A stretch of DNA of 64,000 nt from Pseudomonadota bacterium (GCA_038532855.1 JBCAZT010000002.1:1557-65556), one strand, 5' to 3'; numbered from the stretch's first letter, positions 397 through 13,778 are shown. Notes: generated by a model not told the origin, from the letters alone. Made by a program: numbers and translations.

Positions 397-503
397 TCAG
401 GTTTGATGGCAGGAAAATGATGCAAGTGGAGTGATTAGTCCAATCGATTAATGTGGCGAGATTGATTTACTGGGTCGATTGAATGACCGTTCGCGCACTC
501 CTT

Positions 504-586
504 GTCATCCCCGCGAAAGCGGGGACCCAGTTGTGCAGATGGTATCTTTAGGCAAAAAGCTGGGTTCCCGCTTTCGCGGGAATGAC
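504..586. repeat. pair of inverted REP-like palindromic units (GTCATYCCCGCGAAAGCGGGRACCCAG)
   Basis: 504-530 gtcatccccgcgaaagcggggacccag. 560-586 is the reverse complement of gtcattcccgcgaaagcgggaacccag. Each unit contains its own CCCGC-GAAA-GCGGG hairpin. Lies between katG and ahpF. Confidence 0.75.
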
Positions 587-602
587 GAATATTAGGCGCA
601 GC

Positions 603-2948: not shown

Positions 2949-3102
2949 ATTGTGTATTCCTCCTAAGGGGTTGGGGTGTTTTGCCTTGTTGAAAGGCGAA
3001 ATAGGGATTGTTGCAGCGCAGCAAAATTGATTTGTGCGATTGCGAAGATCGAAAATCTCAATGAGTAAAAACGGGAACCTTTCGGGTTGGTTCCCGACCC
3101 GG

Positions 3103-5425: not shown

Positions 5426-6448
5426 ATGAGAAAAAATGTACTCCTCTCTTTAAAGACAGCCCTTGCAATCATCGGCCTTTGCTTGGGAACGGCAGGTTTT
5501 GCTCAATCCACCGTTATCTACCAAGATGATTTTGAAGGGGCAGTGACTGGTTGGTCGGTCAACAACACGGATTTCGACCCTGACGTAACGACCTTTCTTG
5601 GCCGTTTTGATAACTCACCAAACAGCACAAGCCGAACCTTTACGATCCCACCCAGCACTGACCGTGCCGAAATCGTTTTTGATTTCTACCGTTTTGATAG
5701 CTGGGACAACACCGCTCGATGGGGGTTTGACCGGTTTCAAATTGACATCGACGGCACCCAGATCTTCTCGCTCCCCTTTCCCAATCCGCAAGCGGCGCGT
5801 TCAGGCAGTCTTGGAAATGTGGATTGGGAACACACGCCTTTAACCGGCACTGTTGAGCTTGCCTTTGGTACGGGGCAATTTTGGTTTGATCAGCTTCACA
5901 GATTCACGATTACGGTCGATAATCCCGGCGCCACTTTGGATCTGACTTTGCGCTGCGCTTTAAACCAAGGCGGCAATGATGAATCGTGCGGGTTTGACAA
6001 TATGACCGTGACGGCTTTTCCCATCTTGCCAGAAATTGACGCGCAAAAGGTTTCCGCCATTGTTGGGAACAGTTTCGCCATTCCCGGCAATATGGTCGAC
6101 TACACGATCTCGGTGAGCAATACGGGTGGCACCGCGGATACGGACTCTCTTGTGATCGTTGACGCGATACCGCCTGAATTGACGATGTTTACGGGCGATT
6201 TTGATGGATCAGGCAATTCAGTTCAATTCGTGGATTCAAGCACGCCGCCATCCGGCCTAAGCTGCTGCACTTCAGCGCAAATCGAGTACTCAAATTCAAC
6301 CACAACGCCGCCCGTGTTCGGATATACGCCCGTTTCCAATTTTGATCCGGCCATCACCTATCTCAGGATCACGCCCAGCGGCACATTGCGAGACGCGCAA
6401 ATCGATCCGGTGGATGTGGATTTTGTTTTCAGGGCAATGATCAAGTAG
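5426..6448 (+). CDS. secreted protein with DUF11-like (conserved repeat) C-terminal domain
   Basis: Track ORF starts at 5141. The internal ATG at 5426 gives a signal peptide MRKNVLLSLKTALAIIGLCLGTAGFAQ. The C-terminal segment GNMVDYTISVSNTGGTADTDSLVIVDAIPPELT resembles DUF11 repeats. Confidence 0.6.
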   Translation: MRKNVLLSLKTALAIIGLCLGTAGFAQSTVIYQDDFEGAVTGWSVNNTDFDPDVTTFLGRFDNSPNSTSRTFTIPPSTDRAEIVFDFYRFDSWDNTARWGFDRFQIDIDGTQIFSLPFPNPQAARSGSLGNVDWEHTPLTGTVELAFGTGQFWFDQLHRFTITVDNPGATLDLTLRCALNQGGNDESCGFDNMTVTAFPILPEIDAQKVSAIVGNSFAIPGNMVDYTISVSNTGGTADTDSLVIVDAIPPELTMFTGDFDGSGNSVQFVDSSTPPSGLSCCTSAQIEYSNSTTTPPVFGYTPVSNFDPAITYLRITPSGTLRDAQIDPVDVDFVFRAMIK

Positions 6449-8076: not shown

Positions 8077-9159
8077 TTACCTCTTCTCATCCCCCACCTG
8101 CGCCCGGTGCAGCAGCTTATGATCCGCAAGCACCAGCGCCATCATGGCTTCCACAACTGGTGCCCCGCGAATGCCGACGCACGGGTCGTGGCGGCCTTTC
8201 GTGCGGACTTCGGTTGCCTCTCCATCTGAGGTGATAGAAGGGACGGGGGTGAGGATGGAGGAGGTGGGTTTGAACGCGGTTCTCACCACTACGGGTTGCC
8301 CGGTTGAGATACCACCTGCCGTGCCGCCTGCGTGATTGCTGGCGTAAACTGGTTTGCCATTTGGGCCCGGGCTCATCGCATCGGCGTTTTGTTCGCCTGT
8401 GAGACGTGCAGCTTCAAACCCGTCGCCGATCTCTACGCCTTTGGTCGCGTTGATTGTCATCATGGCGGCTGCAAGGTCACTGTCGAGCTTTGCATAGACC
8501 GGCGCGCCCCATCCGGCGGGGACGCCTGTGGCAACGCATTCCACGACTGCGCCAAGAGATGAGCCAGACTTGCGTGCATTATCGACCTTTTCTTCCCAGC
8601 GCTTGGCCGCTTCTGCGTCAGGACAGAAAAAAGGATTGCGGTTGATCTCCTCCGCGTCGAAATTCTTAAGCTCGATTTTGTCGCCGCCCAGCTCGCATAC
8701 ATAAGCGGTGACGGTCACTTCCGGGATGATCGCCCGCGCCACAGCGCCAGCCGCGACCCTCGCTGCGGTTTCGCGTGCGCTAGACCTGCCGCCGCCGCGA
8801 TAATCGCGGATCCCGTATTTCGCATCATAGGTGTAATCGGCATGGCCGGGGCGATAGCTTTTGGCGATTTCGGAATAGTCTTTGGAACGCTGATCGGTGT
8901 TCATGATCATCAAGTGAATGGGCGTGCCGGTGGTCGTATCTTCAAACACGCCCGACATGATTTGCACCTGATCCGCCTCTTGCCGCTGTGTCGTGTATTT
9001 GCTTTGCCCAGGCCGGCGCGCATCAAGGAATGGCTGGATCGCCTCTGCTGTCAAAGAAAGCCCCGGCGGGCACCCATCAACCACTACGCCAAGTCCCGGT
9101 CCATGGCTCTCGCCCCAAGTGGTAAAGCGCAATGCGCGTCCGAATGTGTTCCAGCTCAT
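8077..9159 (-). CDS. aroC: chorismate synthase
   Basis: 360 aa. [42 protein letters not shown] and [11 protein letters not shown] are canonical AroC motifs. Confidence 0.96.
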
Positions 9160-9236
9160 ATTGGCCTAATACCTCAATTGCGTAGCTTGAAAAGCGCGCG
9201 TTTATTGTAGTGCGCTCAGGCATGCGCCTGAGCTTT

Positions 9237-9327
9237 GCCAAGCCACCCGCTCCCTCCACCCTTCCACCCGGATTTTCACACCGGAGTATGATCCGGGTGG
9301 AAGGGTGGAGGGAGCGGGTGGCTTGGC
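9237..9327. repeat. 37-bp perfect inverted repeat with 17-nt spacer
   Basis: 9237-9273 (gccaagccacccgctccctccacccttccacccggat) is the exact reverse complement of 9291-9327. A smaller 8-bp hairpin (9214-9233) lies adjacent. Confidence 0.9.
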
Positions 9328-9403
9328 CCTCAAGAAGACAACCGCTGCGCAAAACAATCACTCCCCTCTAGAATTGCCGCGCGCCTTGCTCCAAGAACAG
9401 ACC

Positions 9404-10012
9404 ATGATCGCAAAGCTATCAGGCCGATTGGACGAGACGGGCGAGGATTGGGCCATCGTGGATGTGCAAGGGGTGGGATACCTCGTGCATTGTTCGGCGC
9501 GCACTTTGTCGGCTTTGGGCGAAGTGGGTGAGGCGTGCACAGTGCACACCGATTTGCAGGTCAGCGAAAACGATATGCGCCTCTTGGGCTTTGCCGAAAG
9601 CGCAGAGCGTGATTGGTTCCGGCTTTTGACGCAGGTTCAGGGTGTGGGCTCGAAAGTCGGCTTGGCGATCCTATCAGCGCTGTCCACCGGAGAATTGCGC
9701 GATGCATGTGCTGCAGGCGATGCAGCGAGTGTGGCGAGAGCCAACGGCGTGGGCCCAAAACTGGCGGGCAGGATTGTGAATGAACTAAAGGACAAAGCAG
9801 GCGCATTGCCCGGCGGCGGAATGGCCGGGGTTGCGGTCGCGGGTGCTGCAGCTGGAGGCGGAGCGAGCGCAGATGCAGTCTCCGCTTTGGAAAATCTCGG
9901 CTTCAAACCAGCAGTGGCCGCCCAAGCCGTCGCCCGCGCCGCCGAAGAATTGGGTGATGGCGCAGCGGAAGGCGACCTGATCCGAGTGGCGCTGAAAAAG
10001 GCGGCTGGGTGA
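9404..10012 (+). CDS. ruvA: Holliday junction branch migration complex subunit RuvA
   Basis: Track ORF starts at 9305 inside the inverted repeat. The ATG at 9404 gives [31 protein letters not shown], the typical RuvA N-terminus. HhH motifs ([27 protein letters not shown]). Confidence 0.95.
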
Positions 10013-10482
10013 TGGGTGAACTAGTGGTAAGCGAAACTGAGGCGGACAAGGTCACAAAGAAATTTGCAGACGCTGCGGCAGATAAGTCCAAATACGCTCA
10101 GGAACTTATAGTTTCGGGATTCAAGTCTCTGTTTCTCGCAAATGGAGGAGCAATACTGGCGTTACTGACCGTCTTGGGAAACTCTGAAGCAAGTGTCGAG
10201 GTTGGGCCATTGTCATGGTCTTTTGGTTGCTTGTCGGTTGGGCTAACTGCAGCCATGATCGGGCAGTGGTGCGCCGCTTATCAAGCATCAAACGGTTCAA
10301 TATCCTTGTGGTTGGAAAGTTTAAAAGCATTGCCTTCGTCAGATTTGAACGAGCTTCAGTCGCTCGGAAACCCTTACGATCAAAGGTCAAAGTTTTTTGG
10401 GCTTGGAGCGAAGACCGGTGTAGTGTTGTCGCTTGCGAGTTTTATCACTGGGATCTTCGTCGCATTGGATGCCGTTGTGTGA
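10012..10482 (+). CDS. hypothetical membrane protein (3 predicted TM) between ruvA and ruvB
   Basis: ATG at 10012 overlaps the ruvA TGA by 1 nt (GTGATG). Hydrophobic segments LFLANGGAILALLTVLG, FGCLSVGLTAAMIGQW and GVVLSLASFITGIFVAL. No family recognised. Confidence 0.5.
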   Translation: MGELVVSETEADKVTKKFADAAADKSKYAQELIVSGFKSLFLANGGAILALLTVLGNSEASVEVGPLSWSFGCLSVGLTAAMIGQWCAAYQASNGSISLWLESLKALPSSDLNELQSLGNPYDQRSKFFGLGAKTGVVLSLASFITGIFVALDAVV

Positions 10483-10525
10483 CAGAAGCTGACCTTCTCA
10501 TCGACTCGCCTACCAGCCAGCACCC

Positions 10526-10930
10526 CCGTCATCCTGAACTCGTTTCAGGATCCATCTTGCCTTTTGCTCAGGTCCAAAGGAGGCAGGCCGAGGCCCACAG
10601 CCAAATCATGCCAATCAGGGTTTTCGCTTTGGATAAGGTTGATCTTCCACTGCCGGTGCCATCGTTTCAGCTGTTTCTCACGGTGTATCGCCTCTTCCAT
10701 GCTGCCGAATACTTCGTATCGAGCAAGAACATGAACCGAATACCGTTTGGTAAAGCCGTCGATTTCATCGTTTCGATGTTGCCACAGGCGAGCAATAAGG
10801 TCGCTTGTAACGCCAATATAGAGCGTCCCATAGGCTTTGCTCGCGAGGATGTAGACGCAGGGCTCGCGTTTGGCGTTCATCATTCACAGAGTGCTGAAGA
10901 ATGGATCCTGAAACAAGTTCAGGATGACGG
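10526..10930. mobile_element. GIY-YIG cassette bounded by 30-bp terminal inverted repeats (putative selfish/REP-associated element)
   Basis: 10526-10555 ccgtcatcctgaactcgtttcaggatccat matches the reverse complement of 10901-10930 at 29/30 positions. Each arm is itself a hairpin. The GIY-YIG stop codon lies inside the left arm. Confidence 0.45.
10545..10883 (-). CDS. GIY-YIG nuclease family protein (COG2827/YhbQ-like)
   Basis: 112 aa. CVYILASKAYGTLYIGVTSDLIARLWQHR...EEAIHREKQLKRW matches the GIY-(x10)-YIG plus R...E...N pattern of small URI-domain nucleases. Confidence 0.85.
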   Translation of the reverse strand: MMNAKREPCVYILASKAYGTLYIGVTSDLIARLWQHRNDEIDGFTKRYSVHVLARYEVFGSMEEAIHREKQLKRWHRQWKINLIQSENPDWHDLAVGLGLPPLDLSKRQDGS

Positions 10931-10951
10931 TTCAGGGATTAAAGCGCTGTC

Positions 10952-12007
10952 ATGACTGACGATCAGCCCATCCATTCCCCCGATCGGCAAATAGGCGATC
11001 CCGATACCGCGCTTCGCCCCAAAAGCTTGTCCGAATTTATCGGGCAAGAGGCCGCACGCGATAACCTTCGTGTCTTCATCGAAAGCGCCAAAGCGCGCGG
11101 GGAGGCGATGGATCATACGCTGTTCTTTGGGCCTCCAGGATTGGGCAAGACCACGCTTGCGCAGATTGTTGCCGGCGAACTGGGCGTTGGGTTTCGTGCG
11201 ACGTCAGGCCCTGTCATCGCTAAAGCGGGCGATCTTGCAGCGCTCCTCACAAATTTAGAGCCGCATAACGTTCTATTTATTGATGAAATTCATCGCCTCA
11301 ATCCCGTCGTGGAAGAAGTGCTCTACCCTGCGATGGAAGACCGCGCGCTTGATATAATTATTGGCGAGGGGCCGTCTGCGCGCAGTGTGCGGATCGATCT
11401 GCCGCCTTTCACGTTGATCGGCGCGACCACACGGCAAGGCCTGCTAACAACACCCTTACGCGACCGTTTTGGCATTCCCGTGCGCTTGCAATTCTACACT
11501 CATGATGAGCTTGATCGGGTCGTGACAAGGGGCGCACGGCTGCTGGGAATGGCGATTGATGAAACAGGCGCGCGCGAAATTGCGCGCCGTTCGCGCGGGA
11601 CGCCAAGGGTGGCAGGGCGATTGCTGAGGCGGGTTCGGGACTTTGCGCAGGTCGCTGGTGCAGCGACTATTACGCGCGCGATTGCTGACGATGCGCTGAC
11701 GCGGTTGGAGATCGATTCATTGGGTCTAGATGCTATGGATCGCAAATATCTCACAATGATAGCAAAGACTTACAAAGGTGGCCCTGTTGGCGTTGAAACG
11801 CTTGCGGCGGGTCTGGCGGAGCCGCGTGATACAGTGGAAGACGTGGTGGAGCCTTACCTTATCCAGCTTGGCTTGCTCGCCCGCACCGCGCGCGGGCGCG
11901 TTCTCAACGATGCGGGGTGGGAGCATTTGGATATGACTGCGCCGAGACAATCTGCTGAAAATTCGAATCACTCAACACCAGATTTCTTTAACGATCCGCC
12001 AAATTGA
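10952..12007 (+). CDS. ruvB: Holliday junction DNA helicase RuvB
   Basis: 351 aa. Walker [10 protein letters not shown], Walker [16 protein letters not shown] near the C-terminus. Canonical RuvB. Confidence 0.97.
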
Positions 12008-12242
12008 GCTCGAATTTTGTTAACCGATGTAAAATAGCTAAACCAAAACTAACCGAAAGGTCTCAAAACGGGACAAATGAGTGTAAAATCAGGCTATTTC
12101 TCCATTTTGGGGGAGATATCGCTCGCTAAATATGGTTAAACAGATTGCAGTGTGACGTCCATAATGGGCATCACAGGGTTGCAAGAGGCACAGATGCAGG
12201 TTCGCTGCACATGGCCTGAGGTAAAAAGCAAGGTATAAGCTT

Positions 12243-13778
12243 ATGTCGTTCAAACTGGCTGCTGCAAAGCTCTCCGCCGCCGTCGCAGGTGTCGCTCTGG
12301 TTCAGGGTGGTGCTGTTCGTGTGGCTGAGCCGTTGAACACGGAAAACCCCGATTACACGACCAATCTTGATGTGCCGCGCGATGGTACGAAGCTGCAAAC
12401 GCTTCCCAATCAGCCGCGCTACATCAAAACGCGTGAGCGTGTGATTCCAGAGCAACGCCGCCGTATTGTAGAGCGCACTGTCGAATGTCAGCCGCTCGCA
12501 CCTGGCGTTGTGGCTGCTTCTGCACCTCTGCCTGCTGGCGCAAGCAATGCGTATATCGATCCGATCGAATGTCCTCCAATTGCGCAGGTCGCTTATGCTC
12601 CTGCACCGCTTCCACCACTTCCGCCTGTCTCTGGCAGTGGCGGCGTTGGCGCGGCACCTGTAGTCGTTGGCGGCGGTGGCGGCTTCGGCGGCTTTGGTGG
12701 CGGGTTCCTGCCCGGCTTCTTTGGTGGCGGTGGCTCATCTTCGGGTGATGTGACTGTCAACAATTTCCTCGATGGGGAGCCTGTTGCAGTCGATGGCACT
12801 ACTACGACCACAACCACAAGTGGCGGCACAACCACCACAACTGGCGGTGAGAATGGTGAAGGTATCACCATCACAATTGACATCGACAATTCAAGCTCAA
12901 GCACAACCTCCACTGGTGAGATCAGCTCTTCAACAGGTGAAGTTTCGACCAGCACGGGCACTGTTTCATCAAGCACTGGCGAAGTGTCCACGTCTACCGG
13001 AACGGTCTCTTCGAGCACTGGCGAAGTCTCTTCTTCAACGGGCGAAGTTTCGTCCTCAACCGGCGCCGTTTCGTCGAGCACGGGTGAAGTGAGCACCAGC
13101 ACCAGCACCAGCACTGGCGCGGTCAGCACCAGCACGGGCTCAGTAAGTACGAGCACTAGCACTGGCGCGGTTAGCACAAGCACAGGTGCAGTGAGCAGCA
13201 GCTCTAGCACCAGCACCGGCGCGGTAAGTTCTTCAACAGGCGCGGTTTCAAGCTCGACTTCGACATCGTCCTCAAGCTCATCTTCGTCGAGCTCTTCAAG
13301 CAGCGGTGGTGACACCAGCACGTCGGGCGGAGACACGTCGACTTCAAGCTCGAGCTCAAGCTCCTCAGGCGGCGACACTTCAACCTCGTCATCGTCTTCA
13401 ACGAGCGGCGGTGACACGAGCACATCGGGCGGTTCAAGCTCTGGCGATATGACCAGCAGCACAAGCTCTTCCTCAAGCTCAAGCACCACATCAACATCGA
13501 CGACATCGACATCGACAAGTGGCGGTGACACCAGCACTTCGGGCGGATCCACTACGACTTCGGGTGGTTCGACCTCAGGCGGCGACACGTCTACGACCAC
13601 AACGTCAAGCTCAAGCACGAGCACATCTTCGAGCTCGGGCGGCGATACGTCGACGTCAAGCGGTGGAACCGAGGTTCCTGCACCGCCCATGATGATCTTG
13701 TTCGGTGCAGCAGCGGCAGCGGTCCTTGGTCGAAAAAAGTTTGGCCTCAAAGCTGGCAGCGAAGGCGCCGCGGTCTAA
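12243..13778 (+). CDS. Ser/Thr/Gly-rich tandem-repeat surface protein with PEP-CTERM-like C-terminal anchor
   Basis: N-terminal signal-like MSFKLAAAKLSAAVAGVALVQGGA. Gly-rich stretch, then more than 15 heptads STG(E/A/T)VS(S/T), then GGDTSTS(S)n repeats. C-terminal EVPAPPMMILFGAAAAAVLGRKKF (P-x-P, TM, basic cluster). Confidence 0.75.
   Translation: MSFKLAAAKLSAAVAGVALVQGGAVRVAEPLNTENPDYTTNLDVPRDGTKLQTLPNQPRYIKTRERVIPEQRRRIVERTVECQPLAPGVVAASAPLPAGASNAYIDPIECPPIAQVAYAPAPLPPLPPVSGSGGVGAAPVVVGGGGGFGGFGGGFLPGFFGGGGSSSGDVTVNNFLDGEPVAVDGTTTTTTTSGGTTTTTGGENGEGITITIDIDNSSSSTTSTGEISSSTGEVSTSTGTVSSSTGEVSTSTGTVSSSTGEVSSSTGEVSSSTGAVSSSTGEVSTSTSTSTGAVSTSTGSVSTSTSTGAVSTSTGAVSSSSSTSTGAVSSSTGAVSSSTSTSSSSSSSSSSSSSGGDTSTSGGDTSTSSSSSSSSGGDTSTSSSSSTSGGDTSTSGGSSSGDMTSSTSSSSSSSTTSTSTTSTSTSGGDTSTSGGSTTTSGGSTSGGDTSTTTTSSSSTSTSSSSGGDTSTSSGGTEVPAPPMMILFGAAAAAVLGRKKFGLKAGSEGAAV

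Follow-up and report, generated by a model that had tools for sequence, protein, structure and literature searches.

What is a small nuclease gene framed by inverted repeats doing between ruvA and ruvB? The question is raised by a 64,000-nucleotide stretch of DNA from a Pseudomonadota bacterium (GCA_038532855.1, JBCAZT010000002.1:1557-65556; hereafter the window), in which positions 10526-10930 hold a single-domain GIY-YIG nuclease gene, ssn, that lies antisense between the two recombination genes and has a 30-nt hairpin arm on either side. An initial annotation had described the region as an inserted cassette and had proposed, as speculation, that a family of GTCAT-tagged repeats has its cognate enzyme in this nuclease, in the manner of RAYT proteins and their REPs. 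We are confident that the region is an SRM-ssn-SRM module, that is, the gene of an Ssn-type endonuclease specific for single-stranded DNA (ssDNA) together with one recognition hairpin per side, and that it is an old resident of its locus. Its architecture, the family membership of the protein by sequence and fold, the covariation of its hairpins, its synteny and its co-divergence with the neighbouring genes are established here.

Systems of this kind have been characterised by Chenal et al. (Nat Commun 2025; PMC11893778). Ssn proteins (cd10448) are single-domain GIY-YIG proteins of about 94 amino acids (aa) that bind NTS/SRM hairpins exclusively as ssDNA and on one strand only, and cut a few nucleotides upstream of the hairpin in a Mg-dependent reaction. 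The Ssn proteins tested showed no RNA binding, and mutation of Y6, Y17 or E64 abolishes the activity of Neisseria meningitidis SsnA. An SRM lies near 71% of the ssnA homologues and on both sides of 42%, and in N. meningitidis Ssn lowers the integration of transforming DNA that bears the repeats. The same authors noted the 'NTS-ssnA-NTS' architecture, which resembles that of an insertion sequence (IS), as well as the analogy with RAYT/REP systems; mobility was not demonstrated (PMC11893778).

The arms of the window module occupy 10526..10555 and 10901..10930. They are 30 nt each with 345 nt between them and are complementary at 29 of 30 positions (97%) in an inverted-repeat search, which together with folding agrees with the annotation in that both are reverse complements and each is a hairpin. 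Allowing up to 3 mismatches, the arm 30-mer occurs twice in the window, as the two arms themselves; two or more matches were reached in none of 100 dinucleotide-preserving shuffles, and the hairpin pattern ATCCTGAA-N5-TTCAGGAT is likewise found twice in the 64 kb. The left arm, on the plus strand, reads CCGTC / ATCCTGAA / CTCGT / TTCAGGAT / CCAT and overlaps the end of ssn, whose TGA stop codon (10545-10547) falls within the 3' half of the hairpin, inside the arm as previously described. The right arm is the same unit on the opposite strand (CCGTCATCCTGAACTTGTTTCAGGATCCAT); its head lies 45 nt upstream of the ssn start (10928 to 10883) and its end 21 nt before the ruvB ATG, the distance already given in the annotation. 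The CGTCAT heads of both arms face outward. Each arm forms an 8-bp stem with a 5-nt loop, with an energy of -6.1 to -6.5 kcal/mol for ssDNA (z about -3) and of -9 to -13 kcal/mol for RNA. The hairpins are real and of modest strength, and the earlier wording of two strong hairpins has to be toned down.

The enclosed gene, ssn (10545..10883, minus strand), encodes 112 aa from an ATG at 10883, or 111 aa from an alternative ATG at 10880, the latter form matching a database copy (P0001). Pfam confirms the annotated arrangement, a GIY-YIG gene antisense between ruvA and ruvB, for all three genes, and in Ssn finds GIY-YIG (PF01541; residues 8-82, E-value 5e-14) as the sole domain. The putative catalytic residues Y11, Y22 and E69 are invariant across 33 homologues, and their spacings of 11 and 47 residues are those of Y6, Y17 and E64 in N. 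meningitidis SsnA (numbering from PMC11893778). An AlphaFold (AF2) model made with the 33 homologues has GIY-YIG topology at a pLDDT of 81.7, and its top 16 PDB structure matches are all GIY-YIG nucleases (UPF0213 BH0048, UvrC N-terminal domain, Slx1). A sequence search of the PDB gave UPF0213 BH0048 as sole match (E-value 0.005) and no solved Ssn structure, and searches of NCBIfam, PADLOC and PHROGs returned no informative family for the nuclease. A hidden Markov model (HMM) search finds one Ssn gene in the window. Additional Ssn-like open reading frames (ORFs) antisense to ruvA (window 9361-10020; 5707-6324 of locus L068) were rejected as an artefact of homologue ORFs that ran beyond the arm into antisense ruvA in the HMM, and with a trimmed HMM 10548-10883 alone is retrieved.

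As a proxy for N. meningitidis SsnA, genomes were scanned for inverted exact NTS cores spaced 280-310 nt apart. This gave at least 120 inverted pairs across many phyla, among those listed none from Neisseria. A protein of 94-98 aa that matches the HMM built from the clade of the window protein is enclosed by 59 of 120 pairs; in the other 61 of 120 (among loci L280-L399, 280-310 nt spacing) we observed no recognisable Ssn ORF, and these may contain decayed genes or different small cargo or be plain repeat clusters. One such protein, of 94 aa and from Nitrosomonadales, lies between exact NTS cores and is 61% identical to the window Ssn over 88 residues, gapless, with an E-value of 8e-44; its Y6, Y17 and E64 align with Y11, Y22 and E69. 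By its sequence, its modelled fold and the architecture of its flanking repeats, the window protein is a member of the Ssn family. It shares with the Ssn/NTS system the size of about 100 aa, the single GIY-YIG domain and the Tyr/Tyr/Glu spacing, as well as a gene flanked on both sides by inverted hairpins, each headed by CGTCAT and tailed by ATC(C), and, in all likelihood, repeats dispersed in the genome. That a small GIY-YIG protein is the cognate enzyme of GTCAT-tagged repeats, as had been speculated, has been shown experimentally for homologues (PMC11893778), and sequence comparison makes it probable for the window member.

The window protein also differs from its NTS-flanked relatives. Ssn proteins flanked by CTGAAC-type hairpins, as in the window, have KRWH at residues 73-76 where those with canonical NTS cores have KKWN, and they carry a C-terminal tail (AVGLGLPP..., about residues 95-112), the NTS-flanked proteins being about 18 residues shorter. 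The KRWH/KKWN site and the tail are candidate specificity determinants, in a comparison that is confounded by phylogeny. A further difference from the Ssn/NTS system is the conserved position of the window gene between ruvA and ruvB.

As to the arms, their make-up is that of CGTC-tagged REPs, as described by Di Nocera, De Gregorio and Rocco (BMC Genomics 2013; PMC3733652). These have an unpaired CGTC head, a stem of 8-9 bp that begins with A-T pairs, a loop of 4-5 nt and a CCA tail, and most of them are found in head-to-head dimers; their main hosts are Alphaproteobacteria, with further occurrences in Bacteroidetes, Spirochaetes and other groups (PMC3733652). Read as CGTC / ATCCTGAA / CTCGT / TTCAGGAT / CCA, with A-T and T-A as the first two pairs, the window arms agree with this description in every feature. 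The wider repeat family agrees with it as well, by its head-to-head dimers, often heterodimers, and by its predominance in Alphaproteobacteria with further members in Bacteroidetes, Spirochaetes and other phyla. From the stem and loop lengths given in the text of PMC3733652 the arms are tentatively assigned to CGTC family 2. In 2013 CGTC-tagged REPs were said to 'apparently lack a dedicated transposase' (PMC3733652), whereas the two units in the window frame an enzyme gene.

Two further units of the same superfamily lie near the start of the window, at 503-530 (plus strand) and 560-587 (minus strand). Both begin with (C/T)GTCAT(C/T)CCCGCG. As canonical SRM or CGTC-1-like REP units they make up an inverted doublet, heads outward, that folds to -33 kcal/mol (z -9); CGTC-1 corresponds to the dRS3 of Neisseria, of the GC-rich 4-nt-loop kind (PMC3733652). 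The annotation had seen one 5' signature in the arms and in these units. The GTCAT head is indeed shared, but the subtypes differ, the arms having an 8-bp, AT-richer stem with a 5-nt loop and the units at 503-587 a GC-rich stem with a 4-nt loop. The arms also differ from NTS, in which a short loop is closed by a TTCCCGCG/CGCGGGAA stem, whereas in the window a ATCCTGAA/TTCAGGAT stem closes 5 nt.

Conservation of the arms was evaluated in an alignment of 91 distinct arms adjoining homologous ssn genes. GTCA, which includes the three bases before the stem, is invariant in all 91, and the CC that follows the stem reaches at least 90% conservation. In NTS, mutagenesis has shown the bases before the stem to be critical for cleavage and the C after the stem for binding (PMC11893778), and the conserved positions of the arms are the ones critical for these two steps, respectively. 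The 8-bp stem is paired in 97.8% of the alignment cells and four of its eight pairs change compensatorily, a result reached by none of 500 shuffles; T-A/C-G stands at 50:40 and C-G/G-C at 52:39, and slid registers come nowhere near. The arms are much better conserved than the gene they enclose, the proteins being 64-82% identical. Two loci (L213 5637-5891; L232 5554-5856) have divergent Ssn paralogues of 40-47% identity within 3 kb of the ruvA-ruvB copy. The inverted hairpins on either side of these paralogues are of other sequence, CGTCGCCCCGTGCTTGACACGGGGC and CGTCGCCCCGGGCTTGACCCGGGGTCC, and have a CGTCGCCCC head. Distinct hairpins beside distinct paralogues are what one expects from cognate pairs of enzyme and site.

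Outside the module the arm sequence is dispersed. When one genome per species was scanned, the 26-nt arm core GTCATCCTGAAC-NN-GTTTCAGGATCC was found in at least 119 stretches; Sphingomonadales supply most of the matches listed, and the rest come from Patescibacteria, Bacteroidota, Campylobacterota, Spirochaetes, Armatimonadota and other groups. Head-outward doublets at a distance of 40-110 nt are frequent among them, and an ssn gene lies within the 8 kb fetched at about 6 of the core loci listed. We observed that the core is identical in very distant phyla (loci L001-L119), including the isolates Treponema bryantii NK4A124 and Mucilaginibacter sp. SG564, and that it is often paired head-outward with another GTCAY-tagged hairpin, for instance GTCACCCCGAATTTATTTCGGGGTC or GTCATGCTGAATTTATTTCAGCATC. 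Horizontal transfer or a constraint from the enzyme may account for the identity. Four sequencing runs, all of marine-metagenome DNA, contain the window sequence. In these runs the arms stand out by a 3- to 9-fold higher depth and by unitigs that end exactly at them, and arm-spacer-arm doublets occur at the depth of the host contig, signals to which other organisms contribute. A high copy number of the arm family in the source genome is likely. The runs also contain skips of about 350 nt between arms; a reading of these as excision was rejected, since 25-37 unrelated letters between the arms mark them as other arm-spacer-arm loci.

Is the module, then, a recent guest at this locus? Synteny was studied in two sets, the 80 closest Ssn homologues (all from Sphingomonadales-like genomes, with 3-kb flanks) and 80 alphaproteobacterial ruvB loci. 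The window gap of 939 nt between ruvA and ruvB had been measured correctly, and the expectation that the two genes are adjacent or overlapping elsewhere holds for many other Alphaproteobacteria. Their spacing is often 0-30 nt in the alphaproteobacterial loci and commonly 0.4-2.7 kb in Sphingomonadales, from which it follows that DNA was added in the latter. Of the 80 closest homologues, 53 sit between ruvA and ruvB, 51 antisense as in the window and 2 in the other orientation, which the module also has in Sphingobium terrigena in the ruvB set. Hairpins are present on both sides in 70 of the 80, and the head-to-head arm spacing is 400 nt, exactly that of the window, in 46, where the upstream arm is 45 nt ahead of the start codon and the downstream arm covers the stop codon. 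The upstream arm is at -45 in most homologous loci.

The protein has diverged together with its neighbours. Measured as identities to the window proteins, Ssn identity correlates with that of RuvA (Spearman 0.70, p 5e-8) and of RuvB (0.51, p 1e-4), almost as strongly as RuvA and RuvB do with each other (0.78). The closest genome found (RuvB 93%, RuvA 98%, Ssn 82% identical) has the same module in the same place, and some relatives, one with a RuvB 90% identical, have no module. An empty site had been suggested as something to look for in relatives: absence was found, but among the related loci neither a clean empty site nor a target duplication was seen, and a locus without the cassette (L121) differs from one with it (L122) by mosaic replacement. 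In the window itself no duplication was found at the arm borders. The description of the cassette as inserted is not borne out, given the shared locus in 53 of 80 homologues and the correlations with RuvA and RuvB. The module is best read as long resident in the ruvA-ruvB spacer of Sphingomonadales and largely vertically inherited, with occasional loss and inversion. For its lineage the locus is ordinary.

The same data bear on the strongest competitor, an active IS-like or MITE-parent transposon, in which the whole 405-bp unit would move, with Ssn as its transposase, recently or repeatedly inserted, and the solo units and doublets would be non-autonomous derivatives. Inverted terminal repeats that frame a nuclease gene with a fixed 400-nt geometry would suit such an element, as would doublets that share the head-outward polarity of the arms, the opposite orientation of the module at three loci (L136, L244, L262), its absence from close relatives (L120, L121) and the resemblance to an IS remarked on by the authors of PMC11893778. 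It is nevertheless very unlikely. Unlike an insertion sequence, the module is present once in the window, shows no target-site duplication, is replaced in mosaic fashion at related loci and not by clean empty sites, and has diverged along with RuvA and RuvB at a locus that most of its closest homologues share; proteins 64-82% identical are not recent copies. The recognition strands of the two arms are, moreover, opposite, which makes single-strand excision of the IS200/IS605 type impossible. To our knowledge, neither mobilisation of repeats nor transposase or strand-transfer activity has been demonstrated for any member of the Ssn family.

We give less credence still to the possibility that the arms act as RNA, be it by terminating transcription, by stabilising mRNA as 3' hairpins or by regulating ruvA, ssn and ruvB, and that the nuclease is associated with them by chance. 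The covariation of the stem supports a hairpin and cannot tell RNA from ssDNA; one arm does lie over the ssn stop codon and the other in the short divergent spacer between ssn and ruvB, and REPs in other bacteria stabilise mRNA (PMC3733652). Against this as the primary role, neither arm is followed by a T-run or called as a terminator, and it is on a defined strand that the CGTC head and the CCA tail, both unpaired, are conserved. Any one transcript would contain the two arms as opposite strands, and still each has kept its head and tail. The Ssn proteins tested do not bind RNA (PMC11893778). A scan for promoter and terminator consensus gave nothing at the arms, and an Rfam scan of 9000-12500 left them without a match. 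Hardly to be entertained is a free-standing, phage-like GIY-YIG homing endonuclease that cuts empty double-stranded alleles and homes into the ruvA-ruvB spacer, for although its class and a patchy presence at one conserved intergenic site among related genomes would fit, the protein has 112 aa and no DNA-binding domain, its nearest relatives are hairpin-flanked Ssn proteins, it matches nothing in PHROGs and it co-diverges with the neighbouring genes.

For the SRM-ssn-SRM module a mechanism may be proposed after the characterised homologues. Where DNA bearing an arm becomes single-stranded, for instance at a replication fork, in an intermediate of recombination or on entering the cell as ssDNA, the unit would fold into its 8-bp hairpin. 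Ssn would bind this hairpin in an orientation-specific manner, recognising its sequence as well as the unpaired GTC ahead of the stem and the unpaired C behind it. The cut would follow on the strand with CGTCAT...ATCC, a few nucleotides to the 5' side of the CGTCAT head. The recognition strand is on opposite strands in the two arms, so that the predicted cuts fall outside the gene on both sides, left of 10526 on the plus strand and right of 10930 on the minus strand. By analogy, the module may be likened to a domesticated RAYT, present in single copy between its own REPs, and less to an insertion sequence that is still active. As in a RAYT/REP system (REPIN), a single-copy gene that is mostly vertically inherited lies between inverted hairpin repeats, whose family is dispersed as solo units and as inverted doublets, and the enzyme would recognise a hairpin in ssDNA together with an unpaired tetranucleotide tag. 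The two are unlike in that the enzyme is a GIY-YIG nuclease and not a HUH/Y1 (IS200-like) transposase, and that the tag is CGTC and not GTAG.

Several points weigh against this reading. Both arms fail the published degenerate SRM pattern, HGTCWYN(0-2)YYVSBRHN(0-5)WNVSBRGN(0-2)RNCYNB, which in the window matches 503-530 and 560-587 alone; the pattern is a search tool derived from 29 genomes that demands a G+C-rich stem, not a definition, and the mismatch therefore marks a subtype and not an exclusion from the family. The putative tie between the window Ssn and N. meningitidis SsnA or cd10448 runs through the NTS-flanked proxy protein. The stem variants ATGC, ATCC and ACCC are mixed inside 25 of 56 cassettes, which leaves a strict pairing of one enzyme with one sequence uncertain; the mixing also suggests that two stem positions are read as structure only, and it echoes the heterodimers reported for CGTC-2 REPs (PMC3733652). 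In the window just four units of the superfamily are present, the two arms and the two canonical units, so that the case for a high copy number in the source genome is indirect. Lastly, enzymatic activity, cut positions and any cellular role are carried over by analogy from homologues that differ in protein and hairpin subtype, and the role in Neisseria, limiting transformation, may not apply in the window organism.

Why should ssn reside between ruvA and ruvB? We entertain tentatively, and consider rather unlikely, that the placement is functional. Ssn might work with RuvAB, for instance where REP hairpins or cruciforms are processed at forks that have stalled or regressed, or in intermediates of recombination; or the arms might be recombination hot spots that capture cargo, which under this version would be ORF157 in the window and different genes in relatives. 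The idea that Ssn substitutes for RuvC was rejected, since at 14 loci that have the cassette, mostly from Novosphingobium, ruvC lies within the 3-kb flank. No ruvC is found in the window, and Erythrobacteraceae have no adjacent ruvC whether the cassette is present or not. In the literature searched there was no report linking GIY-YIG or Ssn genes with ruvA-ruvB.

The neighbouring genes are as follows. ruvA (9404..10012, plus strand) likely starts at ATG 9404; the mechanically called ORF begins at GTG 9305 and has 235 aa, of which RuvA_N starts at residue 34, and Pfam finds RuvA_N, HHH_5 and RuvA_C. ruvB (10952..12007, plus strand) contains RuvB_N (E-value 5e-78), AAA_lid_4 and RuvB_C. About half of the gap between them is taken up by a second ORF that the annotation had not mentioned, ORF157 (10009..10482, plus strand), which is lineage-specific, encodes 157 aa, overlaps the ruvA stop codon and lies between ruvA and the left arm. 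It resembles a membrane protein with three hydrophobic stretches, has a GC content of 0.485 compared to 0.549 for the window, has no match in Pfam, NCBIfam, PADLOC or PHROGs and is absent from all 160 related loci fetched. In one run a metagenome contig of an abundant relative bypasses it, 10015 being joined to 10525 with 15 nt between. ORF157 looks like recently acquired cargo adjoining the left arm.

Relatives, too, have DNA added beside the arms. In the minimal arrangement the ruvA and ssn stop codons are about 40-50 nt apart and the ssn and ruvB start codons about 50-75 nt; up to 1.8 kb of extra DNA adjoins an arm elsewhere, toward ruvA in 15 of 51 loci and toward ruvB in 29 of 51. The best reading is that the arms border a zone of gene turnover, in which variable cargo adjoins them. 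In the closest relative (L200; reverse-complement coordinates) the left arm at 2979-3008 has lost its head, GTCAT having become ATCAT, and a further degenerate arm is found at 2450-2485, on the ruvA side, between two unrelated cargo ORFs.

Two other features of the surroundings were observed. The aroC-ruvA intergenic region contains, at 9237-9327, a perfect palindrome with a stem of 36-37 bp, one arm C-rich and the other G-rich, which as ssDNA reaches -55 kcal/mol (z -14.7), occurs once in the window, is unrelated to the CGTC-type hairpins and gives spurious matches to microRNA models in Rfam on both strands. Just 3' of ruvB, at 12243-13778, an ORF of 511 aa consists nearly entirely of Ser/Thr/Gly repeats (STGEVSS and GGDTSTS units) and ends in a hydrophobic segment followed by basic residues, similar to a PEP-CTERM-like sorting tail; Pfam gives no match for this ORF.

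The kind of system is already published, and 10526-10930 is a further member of the Ssn/hairpin-repeat system. What appears to be unreported, and is incremental, is the CTGAAC hairpin subtype outside the SRM pattern, the order-wide ruvA-ssn-ruvB synteny and the turnover of cargo by the arms. The pairing of Ssn and hairpin repeats, demonstrated in 2025, can be recovered independently from the raw sequence. The subtype, with its core GTCAYSCTGAAC-NN-GTTTCAGSRTCC, is very widespread, from Sphingomonadales to Patescibacteria, Bacteroidota and Spirochaetes, and since it is missed by the published SRM pattern, Ssn-related motifs are probably more numerous than present counts show. Natural compensatory variation at two stem positions, often inside a single cassette, predicts which positions would be read as sequence and which as structure, which is useful for developing Ssn proteins into ssDNA tools. 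The conserved home of ssn between two recombination genes in Sphingomonadales offers a tractable setting for the role of Ssn outside the naturally competent Neisseria.

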